The notes under the pieces were generated by a model, which was not told the DNA's origin, ran no database searches, and saw only the letters and a program-made list of their open reading frames with translations. Source: an uncultured virus (IMG/VR IMGVR_UViG_3300028833_000149) (taxonomy: Duplodnaviria > Heunggongvirae > Uroviricota > Caudoviricetes). Taken from it: a stretch of DNA of 64,000 bases. The stretch spans positions 1 through 64,000 of IMG/VR virus record IMGVR_UViG_3300028833_000149. The stretch is one strand, 5' to 3'. Shown in pieces: positions 8,319 through 64,000 of this stretch. Both the position numbers and the translations under genes were made by a program. Every line of letters starts with the position of its first letter. The stretch's first letter is position 1.

Positions 8319-10052
8319 ATGGCAAGACGACAAAAATTTGATGTTAAATTACCATCAACTCAAGCTTATATATACATAATGTTTGTTCCTAAATCTCAAA
8401 AAAAGAAATGTTATGTTGGACAATCTGCAGCTGCAAATTTTTCTCGTTTAAAAACTCACTTTGATAATACCTATAATAATAGAACAGAAGATAAATCGAC
8501 TGAATTGATTAGAGAATGACCATTAAAATATATAGATTTTTATTGTTATTTTGGAACTGAAAACGGATCTACTTATTTTGGTATTCCAAAAGAAGTTTTT
8601 ATTGAATTTTTTCATAAATTTCGTCCTGTTGGAGGACAAAGAATTTCTAATGATGATAAAGTTTCTGCAGAAATTAGAAAAACATCAAGTGGAATAACTA
8701 TAAATTTAGATTTTTTAGACGATGAAGAAGAAATATGAACTCCTTCTGTTGGTGATATTTTAAATGCGGCAGAAATTTTATGATCATGTAAAATGCAAAT
8801 GCTAGGTTATGAAATGTTAAATGCGGATATGGGTGGTCAACAAATAGTATGAGAATATCAAGATTTAAATGGAGATTGAATCCCAATTACAGCAAACAAA
8901 ACTACAATTAGCCAATTTACCAAAATTCTAATATCTTCATTTTTAGATAATAATACTAGAGCATTATTAAGTAGTTTGAAAAATAAAATCGATCCATTAA
9001 TAGAAGAAATGTTAAATGAAAATTTTGCCGATTTAATGTCATATAGTATTGTTCATACTTTAACTAATACTCAAAATTTAATGTCTAAAGACTCTACAGT
9101 TGATTTAAGAAAAACAATTATTAGAGTTATTACAGCAATTTTTAATGGAACAGCAAAACAATATAAAGTTTTTAATTCAGATTTATATAAAGCTTTTCCT
9201 AATTTTATAAGAAAATTAATTGACACGCTTACACCTGAAGAACGACAATTATTAGGAGATGTAGATATAGCAGAAAATGTAATAGTAGATAGTCCTATTA
9301 TAACAAATCTTGTTGATTCACTTGTACAAGATCTTGCCGGAAAACTTACAACAAGTCTTTTAAAATTAGATAAAAAATTATTTAAAAATAGTATAATAGA
9401 CTGAACTTTTTATGTAAAAAATAATATAATCTCAGTACGTGGAAAAAATGGATATAATGAAAAGAATGATATACAACAATCTTTTACTGCATCAGTAGAA
9501 CAAATGATTAATCCTAAATTTGGTTTTACAATAGAAAGTAATATTGGTTCTCTACTAAGAAGTGGTATTTCACATCCAGATTATATATTACCAGATGAAA
9601 TAAAATGAAATTGAACAGTAAATAGATTTAATAAAATTATTTCAAGAGTAAAAGATGAAACAAAAGGATTAGTTGCCATAAGTAATAATCCAAAACAAGC
9701 TTCTGAATTAGCATTGTTAGATGGAAATTATGCCTTATTGCCTAAAAAGACTGCAGAAGAAAGAGAAGATACATTAAGTGCAAGAGTTAGAAAAGAATAT
9801 ATGAATTACTTATCAGTAAATAATTTAATTATATCAAAATGACGAACTTTCTTTTCTAATTTATATAGTGCAGGTGATTCAAGATGGGAAGTAACGACCA
9901 TAGAAGAAGGAGATATCGCTTTTTTAAAGAATGATACTATAATAAAGCAAATAAGTGTAGATCCAGTTAAAATAGGATTCTTTATTGATGATAAAAGTAC
10001 TTTCTTTATATCAGGTTCTAATTCTTTAAAGAAAGCCTATGTTATTTTTTAA
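8319..10052 (+). CDS. 577-aa protein with N-terminal GIY-YIG nuclease-like domain (code 4)
   Basis: Open with 9 TGA=Trp; YIY..YVGQS..R..H and AEILW..GYEMLN motifs. Confidence 0.75.
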
Positions 10053-10128
10053 AATTTTTAACATATTATTGAAAAATTTTCTTGACTTTTTCTAAAAAAA
10101 ATATCATAATATTATTGGTATTAAGGAA

Positions 10129-10314
10129 GTGATAATATTGAAAGCAAAGAATTTAATTAAAATTTTAAATCGTGAAAAGAACGCTGAAATAACAATTTGC
10201 GGAAAACCAATAAGCGGCTTCAATATTACTTACTCTTGTGATTCAAATGGTGAATGGTATATTAATTTAGAGCCAAAGCAACCTGTTGAAGAACAAAAAA
10301 ATATTGAAAATTAA
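10129..10314 (+). CDS. Hypothetical protein
   Basis: ORF behind TTGACT-17-CATAAT. Confidence 0.55.
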   Translation: MIILKAKNLIKILNREKNAEITICGKPISGFNITYSCDSNGEWYINLEPKQPVEEQKNIEN

Positions 10315-10325
10315 TCAAAAACTTC

Positions 10326-10354
10326 TTGACAATACAGAAAAAATTTTATATAAT
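10326..10354 (+). promoter_or_regulatory. Consensus sigma70 promoter with ~200-nt leader
   Basis: TTGACA-17-TATAAT. Confidence 0.85.
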
Positions 10355-10552
10355 AATAATGTAAATAAGAAAGAAAAAATATTTTGACCTAGGCAAGTCA
10401 TTAAACTGCTAGATATTAGCATACTCACGAAGCCTCTGTTAATATTGGGAAAATGATAGTCGTTCCTTAAAGTATTATCAAGTGCGCACACGGACGGAAA
10501 ATATAGTGAAATTACTATATCAACCACAAAAAGAACAAAATTAAGAAAAAGG

Positions 10553-10843
10553 ATGTATTCACAAATGGAAGACGTAAAAAAATCAAACAAGGCAACTGAA
10601 ATTAAGTACACTGAAAATGAATTAGCTGCTATCGCAGTATTAGAAGCTAATGCTAACGGCATCGACAATGCTAAAACTTACTCTGAATTAGGTTTAACTT
10701 CTGCAGTTTTAACTTCATTAGTTAAGAAGGCTACTGATGAAAGACCAATGGCTGAAGGATTTACTAGAGCTAACGTTTGCAAGGTAGATGTTGAAAGAAC
10801 AATCACTGAAGTTAAGGGATTCAAAGGTTATTATATTGACTAA
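10553..10843 (+). CDS. Hypothetical protein, possibly DNA-binding (start may be 10565)
   Basis: Highly-expressed-type codon use; weak wHTH-like pattern. Confidence 0.7.
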   Translation: MYSQMEDVKKSNKATEIKYTENELAAIAVLEANANGIDNAKTYSELGLTSAVLTSLVKKATDERPMAEGFTRANVCKVDVERTITEVKGFKGYYID

Positions 10844-10966
10844 TTAGTTTTTGAAACTAATTATCCTGTTTATCAAATAGATTAGTAAGAGTTGACACTT
10901 TTTACAAGTCAACTCTTCATTACATCTATTAAATTCAATAAATTTTTAAGTTGCAAGGGAGAAAAG

Positions 10967-11413
10967 ATGGAAGAAGTAAAACAATCACTTGCTTTTAAAG
11001 ATTTCTTACATAAGTTAGAAAATAAATCATTAGAAGTAAAAGAAAAAACTAATGGTACAGCAACAATTCAACAGACAACACGTAATCAACTTCGTGAAGA
11101 AGGTGTTGCCGCATTACTAGAAGATTTAAGTGCTTTATATGGCGATGAATTCGATATCGTTGAGACAGCTGATGGAATTTGCTTTGTAGCGGAAAACGAA
11201 GAAAGTAATATCACAATCACGTGAGAACTTAAATCAACAATTAAATCTATTGATTACGACCCATTTTTAGAGGCCGATCGATATGACGAAATGCGTGCTG
11301 AAAAGACTGCGAAAAAAGAAGCCAGAGAAAAAGAAAAGGCTAATAAAGAAGAGCTTGTAAGAATTAAAAGAGCGCAAAAGTTGGCTGAAATTGAAGCTAA
11401 AAAGAATAGTTAA
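10967..11413 (+). CDS. Hypothetical protein with charged C-terminal helix (code 4)
   Basis: One TGA at 11222 read through to TAA 11411; terminator follows. Confidence 0.75.
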
Positions 11414-11418
11414 AAAAT

Positions 11419-11449
11419 ACCTACATATGATAAATATGTAGGTTTTTTA
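11419..11449 (+). terminator. Intrinsic terminator
   Basis: ACCTACATAT/ATATGTAGGT stem + T-run. Confidence 0.75.
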
Positions 11450-11675
11450 TTTTTGATTTTATTTACAAAAGTAAGGAATATAAAATGTTTTTTCTAATAA
11501 TGAAAGATAAAGTGATATTAATTTTTGAAAAGCATAGGAACATATACTATATTATTTATAGAAGAAAAGGAAATATAGGCACGCAACTCCACCATTTTAT
11601 TCGTATGTAGTTATTTTAGTTGGCTGCATAAGTCCTTTTCTTCTTTAATTTTAATAGTAGTTTTGGAGTGGTATA

Positions 11676-12374
11676 ATGGCTAAAAATAGCAGAACAGAAA
11701 CAAAATTCGATTTCAACAAAGAACAAAAAGAACTTTCACGACTTATTTTAGAAAGAAATGATGAAGGAAAAGTTATCTTTTGCGAAGGTAGAGCTGGAAC
11801 AGGAAAAAACTTTACTACAATATGAAGTTGTATAAAGAAGAAAGAAGATTTACAACATATCAATCTATATTATACTCGTGCTGTAGTTGGTGTAGATGAT
11901 GAAGAGTTAGGATTTTTACCAGGTGAAGTTGATGATAAATTCAGTCAATATATTTATCCATTACTAGATAATTTAGCCGCAATAGTAAGAATTTCTGATG
12001 GTGTCTATAATGTAAATAGTTTAAAATCTATGTGACAAGCGGCGCCAATTGCATTTTTAAGAGGACGAACTTTCGACCAATCAATGTTTATTATTGATGA
12101 ATGTCAGAATTTAAGTTATATGCAGATAAAAACAATTTTAACAAGAATTGGTAAATACGCTACTTTTATCTTACTTGGAGATCCAACTCAAATAGATAAT
12201 GTAAAACAACAAAAATTAAGAAAAACTCGTGGATACTGTGATTTTGAAATGGTAATGAATTTTCTTAATGAAAAAGGTGTTAATGTTGTTCATATGAAAG
12301 AAGTAAAAAGAAGTGGTATGGCTGGTCAATTAAATGATTGGTTTGAAGAATTAGAACAGCAACAAAAATCATAA
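11676..12374 (+). CDS. phoH: PhoH-like ATPase (code 4)
   Basis: GRAGTGK, LGFLPG, LRGRTF, IIDECQN, GDPTQID; 2 TGA. Confidence 0.92.
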
Positions 12375-12401
12375 AAAGAGAATAATTAGATAGTGCGATT
12401 T

Positions 12402-12430
12402 TTGATTATTTTATTTTTATTTTTTATACT
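12402..12430 (+). promoter_or_regulatory. Second-class promoter (TTGATT, T-rich spacer)
   Basis: TTGATT-17-TATACT, followed by aataatgggtaagaa as at 14162. Confidence 0.6.
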
Positions 12431-12463
12431 AATAATGGGTAAGAAAATAACGAGGTGGTTTAA

Positions 12464-13237
12464 ATGGCAAAACAACTAACCGAATGACTTGATGAATTTG
12501 TTAATAATGGAGCTAATCCTAATGATGTTCCTAATTGGCCTGAAGAAAAAGGCGGATCAACTCAATCTGATTGAGGACAAACAGATTCAACTAAACCAGA
12601 CTTTATAAAGAACAAGGAATTGGTAACAGATTTAATTAAATCAGATGCAGAAGGAAATGTGTATATAAATTCAGGATTTGTTAATCAATATACATTAGCT
12701 GCTGAATATGATCCTACTGTAACTTATTATGAAGCTTATATACCACTTGATCCTACAAAATTAACTGGTACTTGGGTTCCAGATGAAACTACTATACCAG
12801 TAGAATATGTAACAACCTTTACAGAAGGACAAGCCCTTATATATTCACGTAGTATATGGAAATTAGAATATATTGATAGTTTTAAACATCATGACAATTA
12901 TACGATTTTAATTACTACACACTATTATGAAGATGGACAAAAGAAAACTTCATGAATGCCAATGTATTGGGATAATTGGAATATTGATAATATAGCTTTT
13001 AATGCAGAATTGCCTGAAACTTATAATTTTATACAATCTTATTTTATTAAACGTTCTGATACTCCTTTAAGTGCAGAATTGCCAACATTAGCAGATGTAT
13101 TAGCATATGACCAATCTCATCCAAGTTATAGAGTTATTGAATTAACTGAACAAACATTTGTTCCTAACACTTATTATACATTACAAAATAATCCTACTTG
13201 GGTAAATGTTAAAGATTTAATAAACAATGGAAACTAG
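12464..13237 (+). CDS. Putative virion accessory/fibre-like protein (code 4), paralogue of 14233
   Basis: Joins track ORFs through 3 TGA; N-terminus WLDEFV..GA..NDV.NWPE; QSDWGQTDSTKPDFIKNK fibre-type motif. Confidence 0.75.
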
Positions 13238-13278
13238 AATTTATTTTCTAGTTTTTTTATTTATAAACTAAAATTTTC

Positions 13279-13307
13279 TTGACAAAAGCGGAAAAAATTT
13301 TTATAAT
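13279..13307 (+). promoter_or_regulatory. Consensus sigma70 promoter
   Basis: TTGACA-17-TATAAT. Confidence 0.85.
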
Positions 13308-13342
13308 ATAAATGTAAGATAAAAGAAAGGAAAGATATATAT

Positions 13343-13624
13343 ATGGAATTAAAAGACTTACTAAATTATGTAGAAGGATTAGGCTCTAATTTAACTAAGA
13401 TTGAAATCAAGGTTGCGGCACAAGATGGTTCATATTTCGTTGATGAAACAAAGGAAACATATGTTTACGAAGATGAGTCAGATGCTAATGATAAGGTAGA
13501 TGAAGTTCGCCAAAATCGTGGATTCAAAGGTGTAGATAAGAAAGATAAAGAAGCCAAGTGTAATAAAGATGGCGAAATGACTAAACCTGAAAGTCATACA
13601 GTAGTAGCAAAGCTATTACACTAA
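13343..13624 (+). CDS. Hypothetical protein
   Basis: AAGGAA RBS. Confidence 0.7.
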   Translation: MELKDLLNYVEGLGSNLTKIEIKVAAQDGSYFVDETKETYVYEDESDANDKVDEVRQNRGFKGVDKKDKEAKCNKDGEMTKPESHTVVAKLLH

Positions 13625-13644
13625 TTAATTGAGGTGGTGATGCT

Positions 13645-14004
13645 ATGGCATACGGTAGTTCTGGTATCTATTGTATCACAAATAGTTTAACAGGAAAAAA
13701 ATATATAGGACAGACAAATAATCTAGCAAAACGTAAAGTGCAACATTTATCCGCATTAAGAACTCATGTTCACGATAATCGTTTGATGCAAGCGGACTGA
13801 GATGCAGATGCGGAAGCAGAGAAACATTTTAAGTTCGAAATTATTGAAAAATGTCCACAAAGTAAAATGAATGAACGAGAAAATTATTGAATTCAAGAAT
13901 TACAAACTTGGGCACCTAATGGATATAATATAAATTGGAAACCTGTTAATCGTGAAAAAATAAAAGAAGCAAAAAAGAAAAAAGGTTATCATAAAACTCG
14001 TTAA
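13645..14004 (+). CDS. Free-standing GIY-YIG endonuclease, 119 aa (code 4; missing from ORF track)
   Basis: GIYCITN..TGKKYIGQT..R..QH, ERENYWI, GYN; 2 TGA. Confidence 0.9.
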
Positions 14005-14019
14005 TAATTAAAATTATAT

Positions 14020-14050
14020 GTAAGCGTGAATTTTCATCCGCTTACTTTTT
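14020..14050 (+). terminator. Terminator-like hairpin abutting tRNA(UCA)
   Basis: GTAAGCG/CGCTTAC stem + TTTTT. Confidence 0.65.
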
Positions 14051-14148
14051 AGGGGCTTAGTTTAATGGCAAAACACTGGTCTTCAAAACCAGCCGTCGGT
14101 GAAAAGTTGTAGTAGCCCATGCGGGTTCGAGTCCTGCAGCCCCTGCCA
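14051..14148 (+). tRNA. Opal-decoding tRNA(UCA), Trp-type body, 28-nt variable region
   Basis: AGGGGCT/AGCCCCT acceptor, G73, CCA, CTGGT-CTTCAAA-ACCAG, GCGGG-TTCGAGT-CCTGC. Confidence 0.9.
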
Positions 14149-14161
14149 TTGAGGTGTAAAT

Positions 14162-14190
14162 TTGATTTTATGTCTCTTTTTTTGTATAAT
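14162..14190 (+). promoter_or_regulatory. Second-class promoter (TTGATT)
   Basis: TTGATT-17-TATAAT followed by aatattgggtaagaa. Confidence 0.6.
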
Positions 14191-14232
14191 AATATTGGGT
14201 AAGAAGATTATCAAATTTAATGAGGTGACAAA

Positions 14233-14721
14233 ATGTCTAAGAAGTTTAATGATTGGCTTGATGAATTCGTTCAACAAGGTGCAGATGCTAATGATGTAAG
14301 TAATTGGCCTGAAAATTCAAGTTCTGGTGGAAGTATCGGTTTCAAAGAAGGTTCTAAAGTAATTGTTGATTTTAGTCAATATAATTATGTAGTTTCTCAT
14401 CATGGAGGAACTAATGTTACAGTAGTTTTTGAATTACATAATGTTAATGATGGTGGTATAGTCGAATACGATTCTATGATTACAGCAGCTATGGTAGTTG
14501 AAGCTAATGAGGCTGAAAATCAATTAGTCGCTTATTTTGTTGTAGATGGTGCATATTACCAAGTATTATCTAATTCAGTAGTTATCTATGAAGGAGATAC
14601 TAGTAACGTTTACAATACTAGCAATTTACAAGATTTACCAACTGTAGAATTTACAATGGCTTCTGACGCTGATGGCTTAGTAGCTGTAGCTGGAATTGAA
14701 GGCGTATCAGTAGAATATTAA
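14233..14721 (+). CDS. Putative virion accessory protein, paralogue of 12464
   Basis: Shared N-terminal ~28 aa, Gly/Ser linker, beta-rich C-terminus. Confidence 0.75.
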   Translation: MSKKFNDWLDEFVQQGADANDVSNWPENSSSGGSIGFKEGSKVIVDFSQYNYVVSHHGGTNVTVVFELHNVNDGGIVEYDSMITAAMVVEANEAENQLVAYFVVDGAYYQVLSNSVVIYEGDTSNVYNTSNLQDLPTVEFTMASDADGLVAVAGIEGVSVEY

Positions 14722-14722
14722 T

Positions 14723-15226
14723 ATGAAACAATATGACAACAAATTAGATATCACTAAGGCAGTTGTCAATTCAGAAGAAGTAATTATAAAATTAAAACAA
14801 AAATTTGGAACTCAAGGGGACATTGGTGCCCCTTGTTCTGGTTATTGGCTGCTTACTGATGGAACTCTTTTAAATTGCGGCGCTCACGGCGGTATTGACA
14901 ACTTTTTAATTAAAGAAGGCTATATCATTAATTTATCAGACCATTTTACTGTTTATGATGGTAGTCAATTTATGGACTATATAAATGCTGTTCGTATCCG
15001 CAATGAAGTTCCGCATTTACATTATCCAGCTTATTTAACATTACCAGAAAATAATCTTACTTCTCAACAGTGAATCAAAGTAAGACAATGACTAGAAATC
15101 ATTTTAACTAATTGTAAAACTTATCTTATTGTTGATTGTGATGGTTCTACAAAAAATTATCATAATTTTGAAGATGCTGACGCTATAGATGATATTAAAA
15201 TGTGATATCGAACTAAAAATTTATAG
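14723..15226 (+). CDS. Hypothetical protein (code 4)
   Basis: 3 TGA read through to TAG next to the RBS of the next gene. Confidence 0.7.
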
Positions 15227-15237
15227 GAGTTGATAAA

Positions 15238-15891
15238 ATGAAATATTATGTAAGAACAACAGGAGAAAGAGATTTAAGTGCCTATTCTTTTTTAGATTAT
15301 ACTCCACTTTATGATTATGAACATAAACCAGTTCCTTCTTTTGTTAAACAAATGAGAATTATCTCTGAAGATGATGCTTTATTTATGGAAGATGATATTG
15401 TTTTTTGTAAAGATTTTGAGAAAAAAGTTCAAGAAGCAATTAACAAATATCCAAACAAAATTATCAACTTCTTCTTTCAACCTCTTGCATATTTATTGCC
15501 TGGCGAAGTAGAAGGTAGACGTTTTCTTTATAATCAGTGTGTCTATTACCCAAAAGGAATTGCGGCAAAAATTGCTGATGAAATGCAAAAATTGATTGAT
15601 AATGGCATAAAATGGACTCAATATGACGAAATTCAAGCCGTAGCTATGAGTAATCTAGGTTTAAATTTTATCAATTATCGTCCTTGCTTAGTTCAACATA
15701 TTGGAGCAAAAAGTTTATTAGGAAATAAATGGATGGCAGATGCAAAAACTATTTATTTTATTGACGATATTGAAGGTATGGATTATGATAATTGTAAATT
15801 AATGATTGAATACGGTTATCAACAATATGATAAACTAGGATTAAAATATACTAGACCAAAAGTTATATATAAGAACAAAGAAGCCAAATAA
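15238..15891 (+). CDS. Glycosyltransferase-like protein (GT-A, GT25-like)
   Basis: LFMEDDI and PCLVQHIG motifs. Confidence 0.7.
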   Translation: MKYYVRTTGERDLSAYSFLDYTPLYDYEHKPVPSFVKQMRIISEDDALFMEDDIVFCKDFEKKVQEAINKYPNKIINFFFQPLAYLLPGEVEGRRFLYNQCVYYPKGIAAKIADEMQKLIDNGIKWTQYDEIQAVAMSNLGLNFINYRPCLVQHIGAKSLLGNKWMADAKTIYFIDDIEGMDYDNCKLMIEYGYQQYDKLGLKYTRPKVIYKNKEAK

Positions 15892-15929
15892 TTTGGCTTT
15901 ATTTTTTATTTGTTTATTTAAACTTAATA

Positions 15930-15958
15930 TTGACAAAACTGAAAAAATTGACTACAAT
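15930..15958 (+). promoter_or_regulatory. sigma70 promoter
   Basis: TTGACA-17-TACAAT. Confidence 0.8.
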
Positions 15959-15992
15959 ACTATTATAAAGGAAGTATAAGGAGTATTATAAA

Positions 15993-16589
15993 ATGATAAT
16001 TAAATGTTATAATGAAAAACATCCTTGACTATTATTCCTAGATATTGAGTTTGAACAATTAAAATTAGTGCAATTCTCAGGTGCATTATTTAAGTGAATT
16101 GATGAAGATACTTATCAGTTAGCGACAACAATAACTCAATATATTACTACATCAATTGGAACTTATTTTCAAGATTATACAAATATTTCTCAAGATTTTA
16201 TTGCAACTAATGGCATACCATTAGAAAGCTTAAAGGATTTAGTATTTGGTGAAGTTTTAAAAGATATAGATATGAATGATTTGATGATTATTAGTCATGG
16301 ACTTAAAAATGATAGATTAGTATTAAAAGAAAATGGAATAAACTTTAATTTTTTTACTACATCTGATAATAAAATCAAGCCTATTGATGGATATTGTACT
16401 TTCAATAATGCAAAAAGAATTCTCAATAGAGAAAAGAAATTAAAACTTGAAGACCTTGCGGAAGAAGCCGGCTATTATTTGAATTGCGCTCATAATGCAT
16501 ATAATGATATGTGGGCTACTATTTCTGTATTTACATTCTTAAAAAAATTAGATTATGAAAGGAAGATGTTGAAGAATGAAGGTAATTAA
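15993..16589 (+). CDS. DEDDh 3'-5' exonuclease (code 4)
   Basis: FLDIEF, SHG..ND, AHNAYND; 2 TGA near N-terminus. Confidence 0.8.
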
Positions 16590-17055
16590 TTTAAGTGATT
16601 TAAAAATTGAAAATTTAGAAGGAGAATGCATTAATCTTGTAATGAATATCGAGTATCCTAATCTTGATGAAGGTGTTATTGATATATATAAGAGTATTTA
16701 CAATGTATTACGTAGAAATTTTGAAGAGTATATAAACGAAGGTGTCTTTAATAAGCCAGTGTTGTTTCAAATTATTGTAAATAATTGCGGCGACAAACTT
16801 GATGAATATGATATAAAATCTGTTGTAGATATGATTTTAAGTTCATTTAATATGCTTCTTGTAGAAAAAGAAAGAAGAAAAAGAGATTACCGTTTTGGAT
16901 TAACATATATTCCTGATTTTAATAATATAAAAGATACACAACTTCATATTATGAAAATGATAAATTATAAAACTAAAGTTGATACTTTTAACTTAGTAAT
17001 TAAATTTGAAACAGAAGGAACAGAAAAAGTGTATTATTATAATTTGATTGATTAG
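16576..17055 (+). CDS. Hypothetical protein
   Basis: ORF in operon. Confidence 0.7.
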   Translation: MKVINLSDLKIENLEGECINLVMNIEYPNLDEGVIDIYKSIYNVLRRNFEEYINEGVFNKPVLFQIIVNNCGDKLDEYDIKSVVDMILSSFNMLLVEKERRKRDYRFGLTYIPDFNNIKDTQLHIMKMINYKTKVDTFNLVIKFETEGTEKVYYYNLID

Positions 17056-17066
17056 GCGGTGAAATA

Positions 17067-17555
17067 ATGGATAAAGCGCAAAGATTTATGCGACATCTTG
17101 ATATTTATACTGATGGTGCTTGTTCATCAAAGACTGAGATGGGTGGCTGAGCATTAGTTATTGTTGAGAACGATGAAGTTATCGGAACTAAAAGTGGTTA
17201 TGAGCCATATTCAACAAATAATAGAATGGAATTAAGTGCAATTTTAACCGCATTGAGAATTGCGAACGAAGTTGAATCATCAAGAGTTGAAATAACAATC
17301 ATAACTGATTCCGCTTACTGTTGTAATGCTTTCTTACAAAAATGGTATGTAAATTGGTTAAATAATGGTTGGAAAACTGCGGATAAAAAAGATGTTAAAA
17401 ATCAAGATTTATGGAGTGAAGCAATTGCATTATATATAAAAAATAGAGATATTCATAATATCACTTTTGAAAAAGTAAAAGGTCATAATGGACAAAAATA
17501 TAATGAAATGGTTGATAAACTTGCAGTAGAAAAAAGAAAAGAATTAGAGGTATAA
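17067..17555 (+). CDS. rnhA: Ribonuclease HI (code 4)
   Basis: IYTDGACS..GG(W=TGA)A, TNNRMEL, TDSAY, KNQDLW, KVKGH, NE.VD.LA. Confidence 0.93.
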
Positions 17556-17556
17556 A

Positions 17557-19480: not shown

Positions 19481-19492
19481 GAGGTGATGTCT

Positions 19493-55200: not shown

Positions 55201-57573
55201 AAAACATATATTTAAGAAATCTTCTTTTTTTATAAAGCATACTTCACGTAAATAATTTATATCTTTATTATAATTATCTTCTGAACCGGTTTTTTCTAAA
55301 ATATCTTGATAACAATATACATTTATATCTTTATAATTGTTTTCAGTTAGTAAATGACTATCTTTATTAAAAATTGTATGTTGAGTATTGTTATAATATA
55401 GTTGAATATTATTATAATCCTTTACTCGATGTTCTTCATCGAAAATGAAGAAATTGCTATAATTATTTACAAAATCACTAGATAACATAGCATATTTGTC
55501 TTCTCTAAATGGCTCAAAATAATAGAAATTCTTTCTGTCATTACCTGAATCATTTTTAATATCAATAACAACGTGATAGTAATTATTATATAGCGGATCT
55601 AATGGAGTTTCAAAGTATTTTCTAAAATTATATAAATTTTTTAAACATCTTTGTCTTGCATCTAAATATTTTCTCATATAATCTGAAGTTGTTCCATATA
55701 AATCCATAAAAGTAGATGATAGATAAGAACCTTTTATATCTGTTTGAGATGCGTCTGTGGCGCCGCTAATATTAGATTGAAGTAAATTCCATCTTTGAAG
55801 TAAATTATCCTTATCATAAGATTCAGCTTTTCCTTTTTTCTTATAAATGTCTTCTATGCTTGATACTTCAGCTCCAACCATATCTATATTATTAGTCATT
55901 TCCGCTATATATTTTGTTTGTGAATGTAATCTACTATAATAATTCTCTGCATTTAGTAATATATCAGAATTAATTTTTCTTAAATCATTATAAATTCTAT
56001 TATTAATATCTTTTTCTTGAATCTTAGATAATAACCCTGCATTAATAAAATAGTTAAAATCAATCAATTTATTCTCTAATCAAGGAAGTTGATCCGCGAT
56101 TCGTGCAAATTGTATATCTTCATCAGAATATTCTACTTTAAAGAATATAGAAATATCGTAATCTTTCAAATCACTATAATCAGCAAAATCATTTTCATTT
56201 TTTACTGATATAATAATATTTGAACCACTTATTTCCATAGAAAAATTAGAATTATCTGGTGTTATAATTTTTAAATCACCAAAAATAGTACTAAATTGAA
56301 TTTGACTAACAGTGTTTTGTGTTTTAAAAACTTGTAAAGGATATAGTTTAAATAAGTTAATTTCTTCATTAGATAATGTATATGAAGTAAATTTTATACC
56401 AATAATTCTATTGTTTTTTCTTATTAATGTAAAAGTTCCATTTGGTTTGGTTAATCTATACTGTGGTCCGTATAATATGTTTGTATACATTCCAGTATAA
56501 TATTTACTAAATTTTCTTCAATAAGTGCTATCAAAATAAGTTATGAAAAAAGGACTTACTTTTGGTAAAGCAGTTATTACTTCATCAGAACTTAATGTCC
56601 TACTATTTATATTTAAAACAGTTACTAATGAATCGGCTTGTTGAGATAAACTAAAAGTTTTTATATTTCTAAAAGGAGAATATTGTAATCCATTTACCAT
56701 ATCTTTTTTAGAAGGTTCAAATCAGAAATATGTTACTAATGTAATAAAATTACTCATATTTTCTGGTTCAAGTAATACAGTAGCAGTATTTAGTACCATA
56801 CCTATTTGTTCGCCTAATGATATTAATGCGCCATTTGCAGTTGTTGATGAACAACTAAAAGGTATAGTTTCATATAAATCTGCATTTTTCATAGTATTTG
56901 AATAACTATTTTTTAATGTTTTTACTATTTTTTTATTTGAACTTTTTCTTGCAGTTGTATTTATTACAGTTCCATCATCACACAAATATAGAGGAACTTC
57001 TAATTTTAAGTATTTATATGATATTTTACACTCATTAACAATCTTTTCTGTCCAATTGTCAATATTTAATGCACCAATAAAATCTTTTGAATTTATATCA
57101 TTATTTATTGTATATCCATCACTTTGTTTTGCTAATTGATAAGAGAAACTATCTTGACAAGTAAAATTATAAACAATGTTATTTTCAGTTATTGTATATG
57201 TGACACTTTTTACTGAAAATAATATTTTATTATTATAACTATATTCAAGTAATAATTGACTACCAATTTTAATTTTAGATGCGAAAGGATTATCTTTTCA
57301 AGTATCATCATCTAAAATCATCTTATCAAGAGAAAAAGTTAAATCTTTTTGAGCTTGTTGGTGGATATTTAATTTTTCATTATAAGTATAAGTTTTTGTA
57401 TATATATTAGTTAAATTATCTTTTAAATTTTTTGTGTTATTTTCTTTTTCATATTGTAATAAGTCTTGATTAACATTATTACTATAAAATTCAGATATAA
57501 CATTCTTAATATACTTATTAAGATTATCTTGGTCATATGCTTTTGTTAATAAGCTTAATTTAAAATATGCCAT
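52252..57573 (-). CDS. 1773-aa tail/baseplate protein (code 4)
   Basis: Seven track ORFs lie in one frame; gaps checked free of TAA/TAG; about 16 TGA; position after TMP/Dit. Confidence 0.82.
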
Positions 57574-57584
57574 AAAACCACCTT

Positions 57585-59279
57585 CTAACTAAATATTATT
57601 TCAAAATTTTCTTCTATTGTTGGTGTACTTTCATCTCTATTTCAATTAAGACGAACTTGAAATTCACTTTCTTGTGCAGGTCTTTGATATGTAATAACAT
57701 CTGCAATTAAATCTTCATATGAATTATCATCAGAATCTTTGAATACTGATTGAGTAACAATTGATGAATTTCCTTGCCAACGTTGATAACGAGGATTGTT
57801 TGGTTCGTTTTGCGGAACAAATGTGTCATCATTTTGTTTAACTTGTAGGTTAATATTATTATAATCAAAAATTGTTCCAGACTCAAAAGCGTCATTTCTA
57901 TATCTTATTTTATAATCATAACCACTATTTTGTGAATGATAATAATATCTAGGAGCCATAACCGCAATTTGTATTGCATATGATAAACCAAAATCTAATT
58001 CATCACAAGGAACACAATTGTAAATAATTACAGGGTCTCCATCCTTATCAAATCCTCCTATAAAATTCCAATTATAATATTGAGCAAGTGCGGATTCAAA
58101 TATCATAAAATGAGATACAGAAGGAATCGAATTTCTATCTAACTGATATTGAATATATCTATCAAAATAATTAATATTATCTTCTTCGTCTATTCAAACT
58201 GAACGTCCATAAAATGCTGATTGATTTTTCCAATATTTAAAATATCAAATATCACTTTTTCTATTTAATACATATTGGTCTGTATTATATGAATAATAAA
58301 TGTTTTCTCCATCTGTTCATACATATGCGCCATTAAAATTTGTTAAACCATTTCAAGTTTTTTTAGACCAAGTTGAAGTTGATTTGTCTAATACATATTG
58401 AGTAAGACCATTTGAATAATAAATATTATCTCCGTCTCTTCAAATTGCTCCACCACTAAAATTTGTTAATCCACTTCAAGTCTTATTTGTTCAGTATGGT
58501 TCTGGTTCTTCATCATCATTTACAATTAAGACTTTGTGTTTACTTGAAAGAGAATAATATATATTTTCACCATCTGTTCATATATCTGTACCATAAAAAC
58601 TAGTATCATCTAATCCAGTTCAAGTTTTTTCCTTTCAAGTTAAATCTACTGGATCTAATTTATATTGATAAGTACCACTTGAATAATAGGTGTCTTTACC
58701 ATCTGTCCATATATTATATCCTTGTCCTTGTAAAGTACCGCCGCCTTCTACAGCTCATTCTTTAACTATTCATTTGCTTGTTGTTTTATCGAACATATAA
58801 CTATTTCTACCATTTAAATAATAAGTATTATTGTCATAAGTTCAAATACAAGAGCCGTTACTAATAGGTAAATCAATTGTATCTCTTATAAATCATCTAG
58901 ATTCTAAATCATAAGCATCTTTTTTATAAATTGATGCACCTATATTCAAAGTCTCACTGTAATCTGCACCATATTGATATACATGAGTTGTTCTATTTTT
59001 AAAACCTCATCTAAAAAATAACTTATAAATATCAATAGCATCATTTTCATTTTCATTAATTATGCTATCTTCTGTAATAACTGTATCATCTTTCTTAATA
59101 AAAGTATAAGTATTATCGTTATTCTCATTATATCCCAATAGTCTTCATTCAGGATTATAATAATGTAAATATTCATATAATGAATCAATACTATTTTCTA
59201 AAGACAAAATATATTCTTTGTGAATTGCTTGTCTTTGTTGACTTAGAGGCCTTTGAACTGTAATATTAAAAAATTTCAT
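57585..59279 (-). CDS. 564-aa tail-module protein with Trp-rich beta-propeller-like repeats (code 4)
   Basis: About 6 repeats of W..KTW.GL..F.G..IWTDG.NIYYS. Confidence 0.8.
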
Positions 59280-60004
59280 TATCTCACCCTCATAACAATA
59301 TCACTAAAAATAGGTTCGCTCGTATTAAAATATTCAATTTTAACTACAATTTCATCTTCAACATCATCATAAGTCCATTTTCAATTAGCATAAAATTCTT
59401 CATACCCTGATTCTGATTTAATATAAAATTTAATTAATGGTTTTAATATTGATATTCCATCAATTTTCACACTTGAAAAACGCTTTATAAGATATGTTGG
59501 ATTTTGTTCTGGACTTGGTGTAAAACTACTAATAGGTTCATCTAATAGATAAGCAGATTGTGATGTATCTATTTTTATAACACTCTCTATCGAACCTTCC
59601 TCAGGAGTGCTATTATATGTATAACTTAATTTTAATTGGTCATTGTCAGTATCATAAGTAATTGTTGGTTGATAAATACCTTTATTTTCAGCAGGTATAT
59701 ATAATAAATTGCCATCTAATTGCTTATAAATTACATCTCCACGATAATATGTATCTTTACCATTAGTAATAGAATTTGCATTAACAATAGCGGATTCACC
59801 TATATTTAATAATGCTAATTTTGAAGTAATATCACTATCACTTAATAATACTTGTGTAACATTGTATATATCTCAGAAGGAAACTTGTCTAGTAACATTT
59901 TCTAATTTATCATATAATTTATTTAAAGCTTCTTTAATATCGTCAATTTCTTCAAATTTTTGTGTATTATAAAATTGAGTTTCTGTATGTTGTAAATTAC
60001 TCAT
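59279..60004 (-). CDS. Tail-module hypothetical protein (code 4)
   Basis: GAGGTG RBS, open frame, TAATG-coupled. Confidence 0.7.
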
Positions 60005-60014
60005 ATAATCACCT

Positions 60015-61154
60015 CTACACTAAAATAGCTTTTGCTCTACCATATGATACTGCTTTTATTTTACTATCTTCTGATAATGGAGACAACTTATAAAACTCTC
60101 AATATAAATATATATCTCCAACTTCTTCATTCTTATTTACTTTCATCTTAGTAGTTTTCATATCATTAACCATTAAATCTCCATAGGTATTAGTTAATAA
60201 TAAATTTAATACTTTATAATCTGAATCTCCATATTGTAAAAATACCAATCCTGAAGTCGAATCATACTTAATTGAAATAGTTCTATCTAATTGATTAAAA
60301 GAAGTTGGTTCGCCATTTATTTGTTCTGTATCTTGCCAATTTTCAGTTTGCGGCATAAAATCTACTTCACATAATAAATCACAGTATTTTGTAACTTTAT
60401 TTGCAGTTTCAGTATCTACTATTTCATTAACATCTGGTCCTATGTATAAACGTAATGATGGATAAGCATTAGTACTGGTATCTCCAGTAAAATAGAAAGA
60501 CACTTCACTAACTATTCCAAAAGATAATTCTGAAAATGGTAATAAATCACTTGGTAATAAGCCACTAGAATTTTTTGGTAATCCAAGAATATAATAAGTA
60601 TTAACGTTACCATCAGTAATATAAGTATCTGTTTGAGTTCATACATATTGTCTTTGAGCTAATGCACATTGTTCTCCTTGAATTTCAAAAGTAATTGTAT
60701 TTTCAGCCATATATAAATCTTTACCATTATCAACACCAATTACGGTTTTTACGGCTTCTTTCATACCAGTAGTCTTTGCTAAATAACATAAATTATTATC
60801 ATAAGCAAAAGAAAGATAATCAATTTCATACGGACCTAGTGCCGCAATTAAACTACGATATTCTTCTGCGGTAACTCCATAAGTACAAATAGTAAAACTT
60901 ACTTGCATTCTACTGAATTTTACGCCTGTTAAATTACCCATTGCGTGATCATATTGTGGTGAACTGTACTCATTAGAGAAGGAAGGCCCATTAACAAACT
61001 TAAGGGCACTTCCGTTATTTGTAATAAATGTATGATATGTATCTCACATATCTTCACCACGCCAATAAAATTTAGCATATTTATCAAGTCTACGACCAAG
61101 ATATTCTTGTTGCTTTTTTATTGTATTAACTTGTGAATAACTTTTTGTACTCAT
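60015..61154 (-). CDS. Distal tail (Dit)-like protein (code 4)
   Basis: Directly after tape measure; joins track ORFs via TGA. Confidence 0.7.
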
Positions 61155-61165
61155 TATAACACCTC

Positions 61166-64000
61166 TTATGCAGATACATTTATACCACTTTGAATTATTG
61201 CGGCGATAATTGCATCTTTCAAATTACGTCCTTGCATTTCATTTCCACTTAATTGAATTACTTGGTCACCAATATTTAATGTTAAATTTCCACCTGTATC
61301 ATTAACGCTAATTTGACTTGAATCAATATTAGATACTTGACTACCAAAAGTAGCAAAGAAATTATTTAAGTCTAATTGCGCTTCATTCGCTGTTTTTGCT
61401 AAGAAACTGTCTGAAGTTAAGAAACTTGCTAATAATTCTTCACTTTCAGTTCCTCTTAATAAATTTAATAATTCTCTGTTATTTGCTAAAAGCTCATCGA
61501 ATTTCTCACTAATCTCTGAAATTGAATCTTCAATATTTTGAATAACTGCTTCTTGTGCACGTTCACGTAAAGTATTTAATCTTTCTTTTTCTAATTCAGC
61601 AAAAGAATTTGTAAGTTCTTCTATTTGTGCTTTTGAAGACATACTTGTAGAACCAGCAAGTTTAGTTAAATTAGATACGAATAATTCTGCTTTTTCTTCA
61701 TACTCTTCATCTTCTTGAGCTTGATTAATTGATTCAAAATATTTTTGATAAGCATCTTTTCTTTCTTCAAGAGATTTAGTTAAAGCATCTTGTTCTTCTT
61801 TAAGAAGTTCCTTATACGCTTCAATACGCTTATTTTCTTGTTCAACTAAAGTTTCTAAATCTACACTGAAGAAATCCTTACTTTCTAACTCTCTCATTTG
61901 TTGCTCTAAATATGTGACTAATGCCGCATTATATTCAGAGCCTTTTCTTGCCCTTTCAACTTCTCATTCTGCTCTCAATTCGTCAAGTTGTCTTTTTCTA
62001 TTTTCTTGTAAAGTTTTATTTGAAGCAAGAGCTTGTTCAATTTGTTGATAATCTTGTGAGTTAAAAGCAGCTAATAATCTTTCTCCATCTTTACCTGAGA
62101 ATAACTCTCCATGCTCACTTAAGAATGTTGTCTTATCAGTCTCTGTCATAGTAGACCATTTTGATGCTGTTTCATAGAAACTTTTTACTGAATTTGTTAA
62201 TTTATCTACATTTTGTCCTATATTTTGAATACCAACTTGAATTGTATTACCAATTTGATTTAAAATTACATTATATGCTTCATCATAATCTTCCAATCCA
62301 GATAATATTCCACCAAAAGATTCTTTCATTGCCATAGTAATGTTGCCATTATTTGCTGCAAGAGATTTAAAGAATGTGTCTGATATTATATTTTTATATT
62401 GTTCTTCAGATAATACTTCTTCAAGTTGTCCACTCACGCCTTGTTCTTTTAAGGTACGTAAAATTGATTGATATCCAGTATATAAATCATTTATTTCTTC
62501 ATTAGTAATATTTAATTTGTCAATTAAATCTAATGCAGAAGCTCCCATTTGTTCAAATACATTAAACTCTTTAAATGCAGTAGAAATTGCTTTAAATTCC
62601 TCTGAAAATTCTCCTAAAGAATCTTTTAACATAACAAATGCTTCTGTTCTCTCTTTTAAAGATAAACTTTCATCTTGAAGGATATCCGCGGCAACACTTC
62701 CATTTATTTTTATAGAAGCAATTTCTTTTAATATATCTCTTATTTTAGTTGAATCTTTTAAAAATTCTTTTAACGTCTCATCTGAAACTGATTCAATGAT
62801 TTTTTCCATCATTGTTCGTCTTGAAGTTTTTTCAACACTTGTTAAAGACGTGTCTTCATCTAAATAAGAATATAATGATTGTTTTGCTATAGTACGAGCA
62901 CTTAATCTATAAGAAGCATTTTCTTTTCAATCGTTAGAATTTGTCCTTAAAAGTACACCAGATAATTTTTCTCTATCTTCTCTTAATTTTTCATCTAATA
63001 ATGTTTGATAATATTTTAAATATTCTTGTTTCTCACTATCATTTAAACCTTCATAATAGTCTTTTTCTGACATTGATAAAGAAGTATCAAGATTTTCTTC
63101 TTTAACTGAAGATAAATTATCTGCAACTTCTTTTAAACTATCAGAAAGTTTTTGTGCGTCATCACTAGTTTTTATTAATTTATTATCTAAGTCTTCAATA
63201 CTACTAACTGCAGTTTTAATACTTTCTGCTCTTTTAGTTAAATTATAAATTTCAGCATTAATTTCATTCATTTCATCTTCTGCTGATTCACTACTACCTG
63301 CTATCGATGCAGCTATTGCAACACCAATTAATGAAGCAAGTATTGCAGCACCAACTACTCATCCCGCAGCCATAGTAGCACTACCTGCCATTTTTCAAGC
63401 AGTTTTTGCTCTTTCTAATCCAACAGATTTTTGTAATTCAGCATTTTCTTTCTTAGTATATATAATTGCAGCATTAATAGCTCTTGCAATTAATTTTCAA
63501 AGACCTCATACAGCTAAAATTGGAGCAGCTAAACCAAGAACAGTAGATTTTAAATTATCTACTAAATGTTCTTGACTTTCTAATAATGATAATTGTTCTC
63601 CATATGATTCAGAAACTGCTTGAGTTTGTTCATACTTTAATTGTTCTGCTTTGTAATTGTTAAGTTGTTGCTCTTGTATTAATATCTCTTTATCTAATTC
63701 TTCAGTAGATTCTTTATTTTCTAATGCTTGAAGTCTTTGTTTTTTTAATTCTATTAAATAATCTTCTGTTTGTGTAATAAGTCCCTTACGTTTTTCGTAA
63801 TTTTCTTTTTGAGACATAATATAAGCATCTGCTTGTATCTTTTTTCTTTTTAATTCTATTTTAGCTTCTTGTTGTGTATACTGTAATTGTAACTTTGCTA
63901 TTTTTGCTTGTCTCATTTTATTGCCTAACATAGTCACAGCCACACCAGCAAGCACAACTGCAAGTGATACTAAAACCCATTCCTGACTAAGAATTTGATT
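61166..64000 (-). CDS. Tape measure protein, C-terminal part (5' end outside window; code 4)
   Basis: Four track ORFs in one frame separated by TGA; long coiled coil with hydrophobic Ala/Gly segments. Confidence 0.82.

Follow-up and report, generated by a model that had tools for sequence, protein, structure and literature searches.

A gut phage with in-frame TGA codons at tryptophan positions, a tRNA(UCA) of its own and a mosaic of TGA-free and TGA-using genes

Results and Discussion

The phage analysed here very probably reads TGA as tryptophan (Trp) in some of its genes by means of its own tRNA(UCA), with TGA-free early genes, TGA-containing late genes and a host that keeps the standard code. 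This view is supported by the coding gain obtained when TGA is read through, by the residues found opposite TGA in homologues, by the tRNA gene itself and by the distribution of TGA along the genome.

The window, i.e. the whole stretch of 64,000 nucleotides that was analysed, covers about two thirds of the genome of a low-G+C phage (29%) from runs labelled as sheep and bovine gut metagenomes. The genome has a size of at least 103 kb and is not closed, CheckV estimates for two overlapping records being 66% and 71%; a second suppressor tRNA or a tryptophanyl-tRNA synthetase (TrpRS) could therefore sit in the missing part. With Pol III alpha, gyrase and a long tape-measure gene, the phage appears to be a siphovirus- or myovirus-like phage of Bacillota.

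Coding capacity and stop codons

When TGA was read through, open reading frames (ORFs) of at least 200 amino acids totalled 50,700 nt, compared to 30,270 nt under table 11 and 30,543 nt in a control in which TAG was read through. The union cover of ORFs of at least 150 amino acids behaved likewise, with 0.591 under table 11, 0.840 with TGA read and 0.602 in the TAG control. This gain, which is specific to TGA, bears out the first-pass annotation of this DNA, where fragmented ORFs had been joined into full genes across TGA. Its warning that standard annotation would damage the window was also justified, as about a quarter is broken into fragments.

The 58 curated ORFs contain 113 in-frame TGA codons, two of which fall in probable false N-terminal extensions (43536 and 16555), and 156 TGG codons. 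They end with TAA (40) or TAG (18), but such ends are forced in ORFs called under code 4. The absence of TGA stops is informative for 33 ORFs (35 after two start corrections), because these reach TAA or TAG without any TGA being met. None of them ends at TGA, which agrees with the earlier statement that no gene of the window needs TGA as its stop.

Residues at the TGA sites

All motifs in which TGA had been noted at a Trp position (GK-W, TL-W and SGDPV-W in PflB, ES-W-DF in NrdG, GG-W in RNase H and ENY-W-I in the GIY-YIG protein) are present, each with TGA. The accompanying claim that TGA sits on conserved Trp positions holds for PflB and NrdG, but not for the PhoH sites. Alignment to homologues showed that Trp is enriched in the respective columns: the three PflB columns, examined in 80 bacterial loci, hold Trp in 67 of 71, 77 of 78 and 80 of 80 homologues, and the two NrdG columns in 94 and 104 of 120. 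In comparisons with relatives of solved structure, for which TGA was masked as X, all aligned formate acetyltransferases have Trp at the three PflB sites. The RNase H site corresponds to Trp in 3h08 and to Tyr in E. coli RNase HI, and the two GIY-YIG sites correspond in I-TevI to Trp (ENY-X) and Phe. The PhoH sites match Ala and Val in one PDB relative and thus lie off Trp columns. The exonuclease sites align poorly to the PDB relative, and four of these five sites are Trp-equivalent in two related phages (G002 and G003).

Across 72 aligned TGA sites, the orthologues in the two related phages have TGG 20 times and TGA 17 times. Trp leads the 53 partners that are not TGA with 20 cases, ahead of Phe (6), Tyr (5), Ile (5), Leu (4), Gly (1), Ser (1) and Cys (0), and in a likelihood comparison of residues it ranks first, 46 nats above Tyr. 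Only 20 of 53 partners are Trp at TGA sites versus 58 of 77 at TGG codons, a comparison set that is weighted by conserved replication genes.

Repeated sequences within the window point in the same direction. The genes at 12464 and 14233 had been regarded as paralogues that differ at one such codon. Indeed, the former reads ATG..GAA TGA CTT GAT GAA and the latter ..GAT TGG CTT GAT GAA, but the paralogy is limited to the N-terminal 34 amino acids (56% identity, E 2e-9), where X lies opposite W. The reported alternation of TGA and TGG in WTDG repeats at 58.3-58.7 kb was confirmed in the following protein, in which 17 of the 22 Trp positions are TGA and 5 are TGG, and each of the three Trp columns of the repeat mixes the two codons.

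57585..59279, minus strand: tail-region protein with repeats of about 44 amino acids; Trp columns mix TGA and TGG

Altogether, every test that we ran supports the reading of TGA as Trp proposed in the first-pass annotation, in which both the tRNA(UCA) of the window and the block-wise use of TGA had been missed. Insertion of Trp at these codons is accordingly what the alignments predict.

The tRNA(UCA) and its promoter

The window encodes a suppressor tRNA within a short, promoter-headed unit:

13279..13307, plus strand: perfect sigma-70 consensus promoter TTGACA-17-TATAAT, heading a small ORF, the GIY-YIG gene and the tRNA(UCA)
13645..14004, plus strand: GIY-YIG homing-endonuclease-like gene (Pfam GIY-YIG, E 3e-13) with two in-frame TGA codons
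14051..14148, plus strand: suppressor tRNA with anticodon UCA (Rfam tRNA model, 59.5 bits)

The promoter lies 0.77 kb upstream of the tRNA, and the GIY-YIG gene lies directly before the tRNA. The same synteny is found in G002, which has two perfect promoters at the same position relative to its tRNA(UCA). Nine perfect sigma-70 matches are present in the window, all on the plus strand, against 0.06 expected.

The tRNA folds into a 7/5 cloverleaf with a Trp-type acceptor stem (A1:U72, G5:C68), discriminator G73 and an encoded CCA end. In the Rfam alignment, the anticodon stem CUGGU/ACCAG encloses the loop CU-UCA-AA. ARAGORN shifts the register and mislabels this gene as tRNA-Phe(aaa), and it labels the G002 homologue as tRNA-SeC(tca). 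The tRNA is conserved in G002 with compensatory changes in the acceptor stem, its cloverleaf is 97.1% paired over 27 relatives, and an independent sample (run X3) shows no differences over 14016-14138. With the relatives the window tRNA shares the Trp-type acceptor, the anticodon arm GGUCUUCAAAACC with UCA, and a long insert ahead of the T arm.

This insert, of 28 nt in the window tRNA, lies between the anticodon stem and the T stem. In G002 and L140, a relative that is 86% identical in the flanks, the corresponding region forms a CCA anticodon-like hairpin with the loop GUCCAAA. The loop UCCAAA is found in 24 of 26 other aligned relatives, the remaining two having UCCAAC (L069) and UCCAUA (L102), and covariation is seen at all five pairs of the hairpin helix. 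No hairpin with a 7-nt loop N-U-C-C-A-A-A was found in the window insert (CCGUCGGUGAAAAGUUGUAGUAGCCCAU), which allows a stem of 3 bp at most with a 14-nt loop. The insert is unrelated to the hairpin of the relatives, and the remainder of the tRNA is nearly identical to that of L140. We tentatively suggest that the suppressor tRNA of this lineage may have lost the spare CCA hairpin and swapped it for an unrelated insert, while more than 180 in-frame TGA codons of the phage still have to be read. If the window tRNA were the sole decoder, it would represent a natural knock-out of a proposed 'TrpRS handle', and either the spare arm would be dispensable for Trp charging or the new insert would be a different handle. 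The window tRNA is in any case a natural variant of a two-armed suppressor tRNA that can be used to test the role of the hairpin in charging, and a comparison of two natural tRNAs with and without the hairpin would part codon reading from amino-acid identity.

Distribution of TGA codons along the genome

Recoding had been assigned to the entire span 8319-64000. Within this span TGA use is not uniform, as 22604-27118 and 30579-47561 have no in-frame TGA. The window is composed of the following blocks:

1..7824, plus strand: TGA-free block of 12 ORFs (TGA 0, TGG 27) with four perfect promoters; two tRNA-Met, tRNA-Trp(CCA) at 2459-2532, phosphoesterases, a glycosyltransferase and an HPr homologue
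8319..22280, plus strand: mixed block, 11 of 17 ORFs with TGA as called (TGA 41); unknown gene 8319-10052 (9 TGA, 1 TGG), PhoH, RNase H, DEDDh exonuclease, unknown gene 19740-22280 (17 TGA, 3 TGG)
22604..27118, plus strand: TGA-free block with DNA ligase, DUF3310 and NrdD (TGA 0, TGG 21)
27129..30579, plus strand: TGA-using genes, i.e. NrdG (2 TGA), the PflB body 27880-29907 (3 TGA) and a membrane protein 30103-30579 (5 TGA); no TGA in the small glycyl-radical ORF 27635-27868
30579..47561, plus strand: TGA-free replication block of 12 genes and 5400 codons (TGA 0, TGG 46); ThyX, GyrB, GyrA, PadR, AAA_24, DnaB, primase, DHH and Pol III alpha
47564..64000, unstranded: TGA-rich block, in which ORFs of at least 150 amino acids cover 0.498 without and 0.959 with TGA read; radical-SAM-like protein, exonuclease, holin 49312-49683, RuvC, tail fibre, large tail proteins at 52252-57573 and 57585-59279, and a tape-measure gene extending from 61166 beyond the window edge

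In the mixed block, one of the 41 TGA codons lies in the false start of ORF 16555, correction of which leaves 10 ORFs with TGA. Pol III alpha has 25 TGG and no TGA, with identical counts in G002 and G003, and the TGA mosaic of these two phages is alike. On the combined map of 119 ORFs, with 181 TGA and 235 TGG codons, the heterogeneity is pronounced (chi-square 217.7, 98 df, P 4.5e-11); the region 47564-73004 alone has 68 TGA and 35 TGG. Among the 74 ORFs with at least two Trp codons, 31 have no TGA, whereas the average over 5000 shuffles was 11.1 and the highest value 22.

TGA is thus enriched in structural and lysis genes, and replication genes are compatible with the standard code. The perfect promoters at 31329, 36004 and 43489 lie within the replication block, and each of these three, the only ones at 30-48 kb, is followed by TGA-free genes; no perfect sigma-70 promoter was found in the TGA-rich block 47564-64000. 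There are exceptions to an early/late split. The 8-22 kb region combines TGA-rich genes with strong promoters, the ORFs called in the promoter-rich small-ORF region of the 30-kb extension, some perhaps spurious, have 24 TGA versus 32 TGG, and the likely capsid gene and one tail-fibre gene have no TGA.

Proposed explanation and alternatives

In the explanation that we favour, the tRNA(UCA) would be transcribed from its perfect host-type sigma-70 promoter, would presumably be charged by the TrpRS of the host, and would decode TGA as Trp in competition with RF2 of the host. Those genes of replication and nucleotide metabolism that would be needed first have no TGA and are therefore readable under either code. 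The tail, portal, terminase-like and holin genes and many accessory genes hold TGA, and their products would be finished only after the suppressor tRNA has accumulated. A Clostridia bacterium with the standard code would be the most probable host. Indirect hints at this code come from the nearest PflB homologues, which stem from Clostridia metagenome-assembled genomes (MAGs; 75-77% identity), from the sigma-70 consensus promoters and from the TGA-free early genes. In Pol III, the nearest cultured phages are the SPbeta-like phages of Bacillus and Enterococcus (35-37%). No TrpRS and no release factor of phage origin were found in the phage, and the RF-1 and class-Ib synthetase families were not found in G000-G003, a complete 130-kb relative included.

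The latter findings could also mean that the host itself uses code 4, being Mycoplasma-like or another bacterium with TGA=Trp, that the phage just adopts this code, and that the TGA-free blocks reflect codon bias or recent gene import; the very low G+C content and the complete lack of TGA stops would fit with this view. However, a code-4 host would not account for a run of 5400 codons with 46 TGG and no TGA, nor for a Pol III gene that keeps to TGG across three phages which are only about 60% identical. The possession of a tRNA(UCA) behind a consensus promoter, the Clostridia MAGs as source of the closest PflB and the Bacillus and Enterococcus hosts of the closest cultured phages also speak against it, so that we regard a code-4 host as quite improbable. 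It is somewhat unlikely, too, that TGA means Trp but that the mosaic is unrelated to timing, the TGA-free modules being those swapped most often with standard-code phages, or those in which any risk of read-through is selected against most strongly. The exceptions named above would be accommodated in this way: the TGA-rich genes that follow strong promoters at 8-22 kb, the TGA codons of small ORFs in the promoter-rich region, and the capsid-like and tail-fibre genes that lack TGA. This would leave unexplained that the perfect promoters of 30-48 kb head TGA-free genes while the tail block has none, that TGA is required in the holin gene and in every large tail gene, and that G002 and G003 have kept the pattern.

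A different residue at TGA (Gly as in code 25, Cys, Ser via a long-armed tRNA, or selenocysteine) or a leaky stop is very improbable. A long variable-region insert and G73, both present in the window tRNA, are features common to seryl-tRNA synthetase recognition and tRNA-Sec, and ARAGORN assigns the G002 homologue to the latter. Yet, Trp leads the partners at TGA sites and is strictly conserved at the PflB and NrdG sites. Gly makes up 1 of 53 partners and is found at none of the PflB and NrdG sites, for which reason code 25, known from Gracilibacteria, Absconditabacteria and phages, was rejected. A tRNA-Sec (selC) has an 8-bp acceptor and a 6-bp D stem and serves rare, SECIS-dependent UGA codons. 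It was rejected since the window tRNA combines a 7-bp acceptor with a 4-bp D stem, scores lower with the Rfam tRNA-Sec model than with the general tRNA model, and faces at least 111 TGA sites in 23 genes, which is far too many for selenocysteine, with more than 100 sites on Trp columns. Nineteen genuine Sec-like tRNAs differ from the window tRNA in their ends and arm loops; L117 and L119 look Sec-like as well.

Comparison with known systems

In Mycoplasma and Spiroplasma, code 4 is read by a tRNA-Trp(UCA), the genomes have a low G+C content and use this code throughout, and RF2 is absent. The present phage resembles these low-G+C lineages in that TGA would be read as Trp by a UCA tRNA, but differs in its mosaic use and in that the reading would be imposed on a host in which TGA is probably a stop. 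Opal or amber recoding in blocks has reportedly been described for crAss-like phages, along with the Mgcod annotation approach. As in those phages, the genome is split into standard-compatible and alternative-code stretches, but the gene content is unrelated and the blocks are interleaved rather than arranged in two arms.

The recoding fits the model published for code-4 phages whose hosts use the standard code, so that its kind is already known, and the first-pass annotation was right to recall code-4 gut phages. According to those parts of Borges et al. that describe TGA-to-Trp gut phages on standard-code Firmicutes hosts (10.1101/2021.08.26.457843), these phages share with ours the low G+C content, a suppressor tRNA, the animal gut habitat, the lack of TGA stops, and the concentration of TGA in structural and lysis genes with standard-compatible replication genes. 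The same parts describe a TrpRS/RF1 'code change module' in Jade phages, which was not found in our phage, and in our phage many non-structural genes have TGA too (PflB, NrdG, RNase H, PhoH, exonucleases). Suppressor tRNAs were found in only 35% of the code-4 phages considered there, and non-canonical tRNAs were suspected (10.1101/2021.08.26.457843); the Phe(aaa) miscall by ARAGORN helps to explain this figure. The section of Seki et al. on 13 phage tRNA(UCA)s states that all of them insert Trp in an E. coli extract (10.1101/2025.10.30.685624). As standard annotation fragments about a quarter of the window, similar phages are probably mis-annotated in public collections. The window provides a worked example of three linked traits, namely replication genes free of TGA, a tRNA(UCA) driven by a promoter, and late genes that would depend on TGA being read.

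Genome, gene content and kinship

The window, with 64 kb and a G+C content of 28.9%, is the opening part of a 73,004-bp virus record (G000). A second IMG/VR record (G001) overlaps positions 24088-73004 of G000 at 99.996% identity and extends 30 kb beyond it, and the genome must therefore be at least 103 kb in size (CheckV estimates for the two overlapping records were 66% and 71%). The gene complement marks it as a large tailed phage. Pfam families include two phosphoesterases, a glycosyltransferase, an HPr homologue, PhoH, GIY-YIG, RNase H, a UvrD-type helicase, an ATP-dependent ligase, NrdD, NrdG, pyruvate formate-lyase (PflB), ThyX, GyrB, GyrA, DnaB, a primase, a DHH protein, Pol III alpha and a DEDDh exonuclease. 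PHROGs added a holin, a RuvC-like resolvase, a tail fibre, a tape-measure protein of 1579 aa, a portal and virion proteins. By Pol III alpha, the nearest cultured phages are SPbeta-like Bacillus phages and Enterococcus phages (35-37% identity), and megablast of 50-64 kb against cultured phages gave no match. IMG/VR holds three uncultured relatives with Pol III identities of 59-62%, among them G002, a complete genome of 130 kb. The public runs with the tRNA region are labelled as sheep gut and bovine gut metagenome.

Several genes are of interest in their own right. The HPr homologue at 7307-7570 (Pfam PTS-HPr, E 7e-13) is a phage-encoded relative of the PTS phosphocarrier within the TGA-free early block. 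The pflB gene is split: the 675-aa body (27880-29907) ends partway through the glycyl-radical domain (Pfam Gly_radical positions 2-50), and positions 52-106 are encoded by a separate ORF of 77 aa (27635-27868) located upstream of the body and directly after nrdG. The nearest PflB genes, which belong to Clostridia MAGs (75-77% identity), end at the same point as the phage body, and in one of them, L147, the small glycyl-radical piece is a separate ORF downstream of the body. Lastly, G002 has two arrays with 32 ordinary tRNA genes in total (54299-67034), and the window contig has only three such genes, at its very start; the remainder of an array of this kind may therefore be located in the unassembled part.

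Reading TGA as a sense codon

The first-pass annotation had claimed that fragmented ORFs join into full genes when TGA is read through. Indeed, the summed length of ORFs of at least 200 aa rose from 30.3 kb under table 11 to 50.7 kb with TGA read (30.5 kb in a TAG-read control), and the union cover of ORFs of at least 150 aa rose from 0.591 to 0.840 (TAG control 0.602). The 58 curated ORFs contain 113 in-frame TGA and 156 TGG codons, with two of the 113 falling in probable false N-terminal extensions. The related claim that no gene needs TGA as its stop also held: all 33 TGA-less ORFs (35 after two start corrections) reach TAA or TAG, and thus none of them stops at TGA. In four genes, a TGA is located 1-3 codons ahead of TAA or TAG:

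Window 49272-49274, in the exonuclease gene
G000 66360-66362, in gene 66354-67130
G001 56300-56302, in gene 56297-57646
G001 62986-62988, in gene 62983-63507

Orthologues were aligned for three genes with TGA in the final 25 codons, namely the exonuclease gene, 66354-67130 and the membrane protein gene 30103-30579. The terminal TGA of the exonuclease gene is TGG in both aligned relatives. The other three near-terminal codons, the number of which is about that expected by chance, could be either stop or Trp.

TGA probably encodes tryptophan

TGA was masked as X before alignment, and the alignments were therefore not pulled towards Trp. The first-pass annotation had placed TGA on conserved Trp positions of four proteins, and its specific claims held. 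All three PflB sites align to Trp in solved formate acetyltransferases, and across 80 bacterial loci Trp was found in 67/71, 77/78 and 80/80 of the aligned sequences. NrdG had no match among solved structures and a wide homologue search (n=120) was used instead; Trp occupies one site in 94 homologues (Phe in 24) and the other in 104 (Gln in 8, His in 6), and the profile of these TGA columns is the same as that of the three TGG columns of NrdG. In GIY-YIG, the ENY-X site is Trp in I-TevI and the second TGA site aligns to Phe. The GG-X site of RNase H is Trp in 3h08 and Tyr in E. coli RNase HI. The two TGA sites of PhoH align to Ala and Val in unconserved columns of a single, distant solved relative, and the exonuclease, which aligns poorly to its single distant solved relative, also has its TGA sites on unconserved columns; these two comparisons carry little weight for or against Trp.

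A comparison with orthologues in the relatives G002 and G003 covered 72 aligned TGA sites. The partner codon was TGG at 20 sites and TGA at 17, and the remaining partners were mostly Phe, Tyr, Ile and Leu, with Gly and Ser once each and Cys never. Trp gave the best fit to the partner residues, 46 natural-log units over Tyr, with likelihoods from an empirical substitution table built on these same alignments (background Trp among partners 0.9%). TGA sites were less conserved than TGG sites (Trp in 20/53 non-TGA partners versus 58/77), the TGG set being dominated by well-conserved replication genes. In the exonuclease and the membrane protein, TGA and TGG interchange at the same columns across the three phages. 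The two internal comparisons of the first-pass annotation were also reproduced: the TGA/TGG pair of paralogues 12464 and 14233 lies within their shared 34-residue N-terminus, and the repeat protein 57585-59279 has 22 Trp positions (17 TGA and 5 TGG), both codons being present in each of its three repeat Trp columns.

Mosaic use of TGA

Recoding had been proposed for the entire span 8319-64000. TGA is used within this span, but not uniformly: its use is block-wise, with TGA-free stretches at 22604-27118 and 30579-47561.

Use of TGA and TGG in selected blocks and genes
1-7824, 12 ORFs: TGA 0, TGG 27
8319-10052, gene of unknown function: TGA 9, TGG 1
19740-22280, gene of unknown function: TGA 17, TGG 3
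22604-27118, ligase, DUF3310 and NrdD: TGA 0, TGG 21
30579-47561, 12 replication genes (5400 codons): TGA 0, TGG 46
52252-57573, large tail protein: TGA 16, TGG 6
57585-59279, repeat protein: TGA 17, TGG 5
Tape-measure gene, full length: TGA 7, TGG 4

On the combined 103-kb map, the 119 called ORFs contain 181 TGA and 235 TGG codons, and their distribution is heterogeneous (chi-square 217.7, 98 df, P 4.5e-11). No TGA occurs in 31 of the 74 ORFs that have two or more Trp codons; across 5000 shuffles, the number of such TGA-less ORFs averaged 11.1 and never exceeded 22. In the +2 frame, the TGA-free genes contain many TGA triplets (85 in Pol III, for example), and the in-frame absence of TGA is therefore selective. 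The relatives G002 and G003 share the block pattern, and Pol III has 25 TGG and no TGA in all three phages. As exceptions among the structural genes, the probable capsid gene and one tail-fibre gene lack TGA. Within the TGA-rich late region, three large ORFs of G001 without a family match (538, 461 and 478 aa; 58373-62918, minus strand) together contain 18 TGG and no TGA.

Exact TTGACA-17-TATAAT promoters occur nine times in the window, all on the plus strand, versus 0.06 expected:

152, 3384, 5690 and 7001 (+), in the TGA-free first block
10326 (+)
13279 (+), 0.77 kb upstream of the tRNA, heading the unit of small ORF, GIY-YIG and tRNA
31329 (+), before gyrB
36004 (+), before a PadR-like gene
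43489 (+), before Pol III

These nine promoters have an A-rich spacer in common and look like a phage early-promoter family. None is found in the TGA-rich tail block, and in G002 two perfect promoters occupy the corresponding position with respect to its tRNA(UCA). This separation has exceptions. Matches at 11 of 12 positions precede TGA-rich genes, such as 8319-10052. Promoter-like matches in 7-23 kb showed no excess (115 versus 108 in shuffles), and the signal is informative only for perfect 12/12 matches. In G001, the 30-kb extension contains 13 further perfect promoters among small ORFs with 24 TGA versus 32 TGG; some of these ORFs are probably not genes.

The suppressor tRNA

ARAGORN reported a 98-nt "tRNA-Phe(aaa)" at 14051-14148 (+). 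The Rfam tRNA model scored this segment at 59.5 bits, with the anticodon stem CUGGU/ACCAG, the loop CU-UCA-AA and a 25-nt insertion in the variable region. As Rfam aligns the loop in this manner, the anticodon is UCA and ARAGORN is out of register. The acceptor stem, AGGGGCU/AGCCCCU, has A1:U72 and G5:C68, the discriminator base is G and CCA is encoded; these acceptor features and the discriminator G are identity elements of bacterial tRNA-Trp. G73 is listed as such an element by Seki et al. (10.1101/2025.10.30.685624). G002 has a single homologue of 97 nt, called tRNA-SeC(tca) by ARAGORN, which is also located directly downstream of a GIY-YIG gene and of which the acceptor stem differs by compensatory changes. 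A search of the four records G000-G003 revealed no further UCA tRNA, no RF-1 family protein and no class-Ib synthetase. An origin as a recent copy of the separate tRNA-Trp(CCA) at 2459-2532 was ruled out, because the acceptor stems differ.

In the region 13900-14300, Rfam (E up to 1) returned the tRNA and one chance-level sRNA match, and no theta or HDV-like ribozyme. The exact 20-nt anticodon arm had no match in IMG/VR, a search from which the window's own record was possibly excluded. The cassette of small ORF, GIY-YIG and tRNA(UCA), which is flanked by genes 12464-13237 and 14233-14721 that have only the 34-residue N-terminus in common (56% identity), may have been inserted by the homing endonuclease.

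A spare CCA hairpin replaced in the window lineage

Scanning IMG/VR for the anticodon arm followed 15-40 nt later by a T-arm seed yielded 73 contigs, and 16 were obtained with these seeds at the usual distance of 4-14 nt. The insert was of the UCCAA type in 45 of the 73 contigs and of the UCCA(U/C)A type in 6; 19 had tRNA-Sec-like ends and 3 were other, 2 of the latter also being Sec-like. When 27 Trp-like members were aligned, the cloverleaf was 97.1% paired, and the insert hairpin was 86% paired with all five pairs changed on both sides. The insert loop contains UCCAAA, which is the sequence of the tRNA-Trp anticodon loop, in 24 of 26 relatives, the exceptions being loci L069 (UCCAAC) and L102 (UCCAUA). 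We found no publication that describes a suppressor tRNA with a hairpin resembling a Trp anticodon arm, though the supplementary tRNA tables of two preprints may include such tRNAs, and none is described in the accessible parts of PMC5389517 and Seki et al. (10.1101/2025.10.30.685624).

The window tRNA is the exception: no CCA loop is present in its 28-nt insert, for which the best fold has a stem of 3 bp and a loop of 14 nt. The closest relative, metagenome locus L140, is 86% identical over 13252-14148, with an identical 5' flank and a nearly identical tRNA body (one compensatory D-stem change, one anticodon-stem change, and a second D-stem pair tightened from U:G to U:A). The L140 insert is a normal GUCCAAA hairpin that matches the window at only 8/28 insert positions. 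An assembly error was ruled out by the independent contig X3, from another sample and another study, which covers 14016-14138 with 0 differences. X4, from an RNA library, covers 14082-14456 with 0 substitutions and one single-base gap, an additional T after 14176, which lies beyond the 3' end of the tRNA. The relative X5, 95% identical, spans the whole stretch and has none of its listed differences inside the tRNA; the relative in X7 has indels within the insert. The window lineage has thus replaced the spare CCA hairpin of a two-armed suppressor tRNA, which provides a natural test of what this hairpin does.

At four IMG/VR loci with a two-armed tRNA(UCA) (L061, L080, L085 and L114), reading TAG added more ORF cover, measured in 6 kb around the tRNA, than reading TGA; more than one stop codon may be recoded in these phages.

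A proposed model for TGA decoding and its relation to known phages

We propose that host RNA polymerase would transcribe the consensus-promoter units, including tRNA(UCA), and that the genes needed at once, being without TGA, would be translated under the host's code. The accumulating tRNA(UCA) would receive Trp, presumably from the host TrpRS because no such enzyme of the phage was seen, and could then out-compete RF2 at UGA often enough for the TGA-bearing genes, such that tail, portal, terminase-like and holin genes would be completed through read-through. Four elements of this model are inferred: the enzyme that charges the tRNA, the competition of the tRNA with RF2, the code of the host and the role in timing. 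The same model is put forward by Borges et al. (10.1101/2021.08.26.457843), and Seki et al. (10.1101/2025.10.30.685624) report Trp insertion in E. coli extract for 13/13 phage tRNA(UCA)s tested.

As the first-pass annotation had stated, code-4 gut phages have been described: TGA to Trp recoding and late-gene bias (Borges et al., 10.1101/2021.08.26.457843) as well as block-wise codes are already in print, and it is well supported that the window phage fits this known recoding. To this picture our analysis adds two points, namely a decoder that is mis-called by a standard tool, and the replacement of its spare CCA hairpin in the window lineage.
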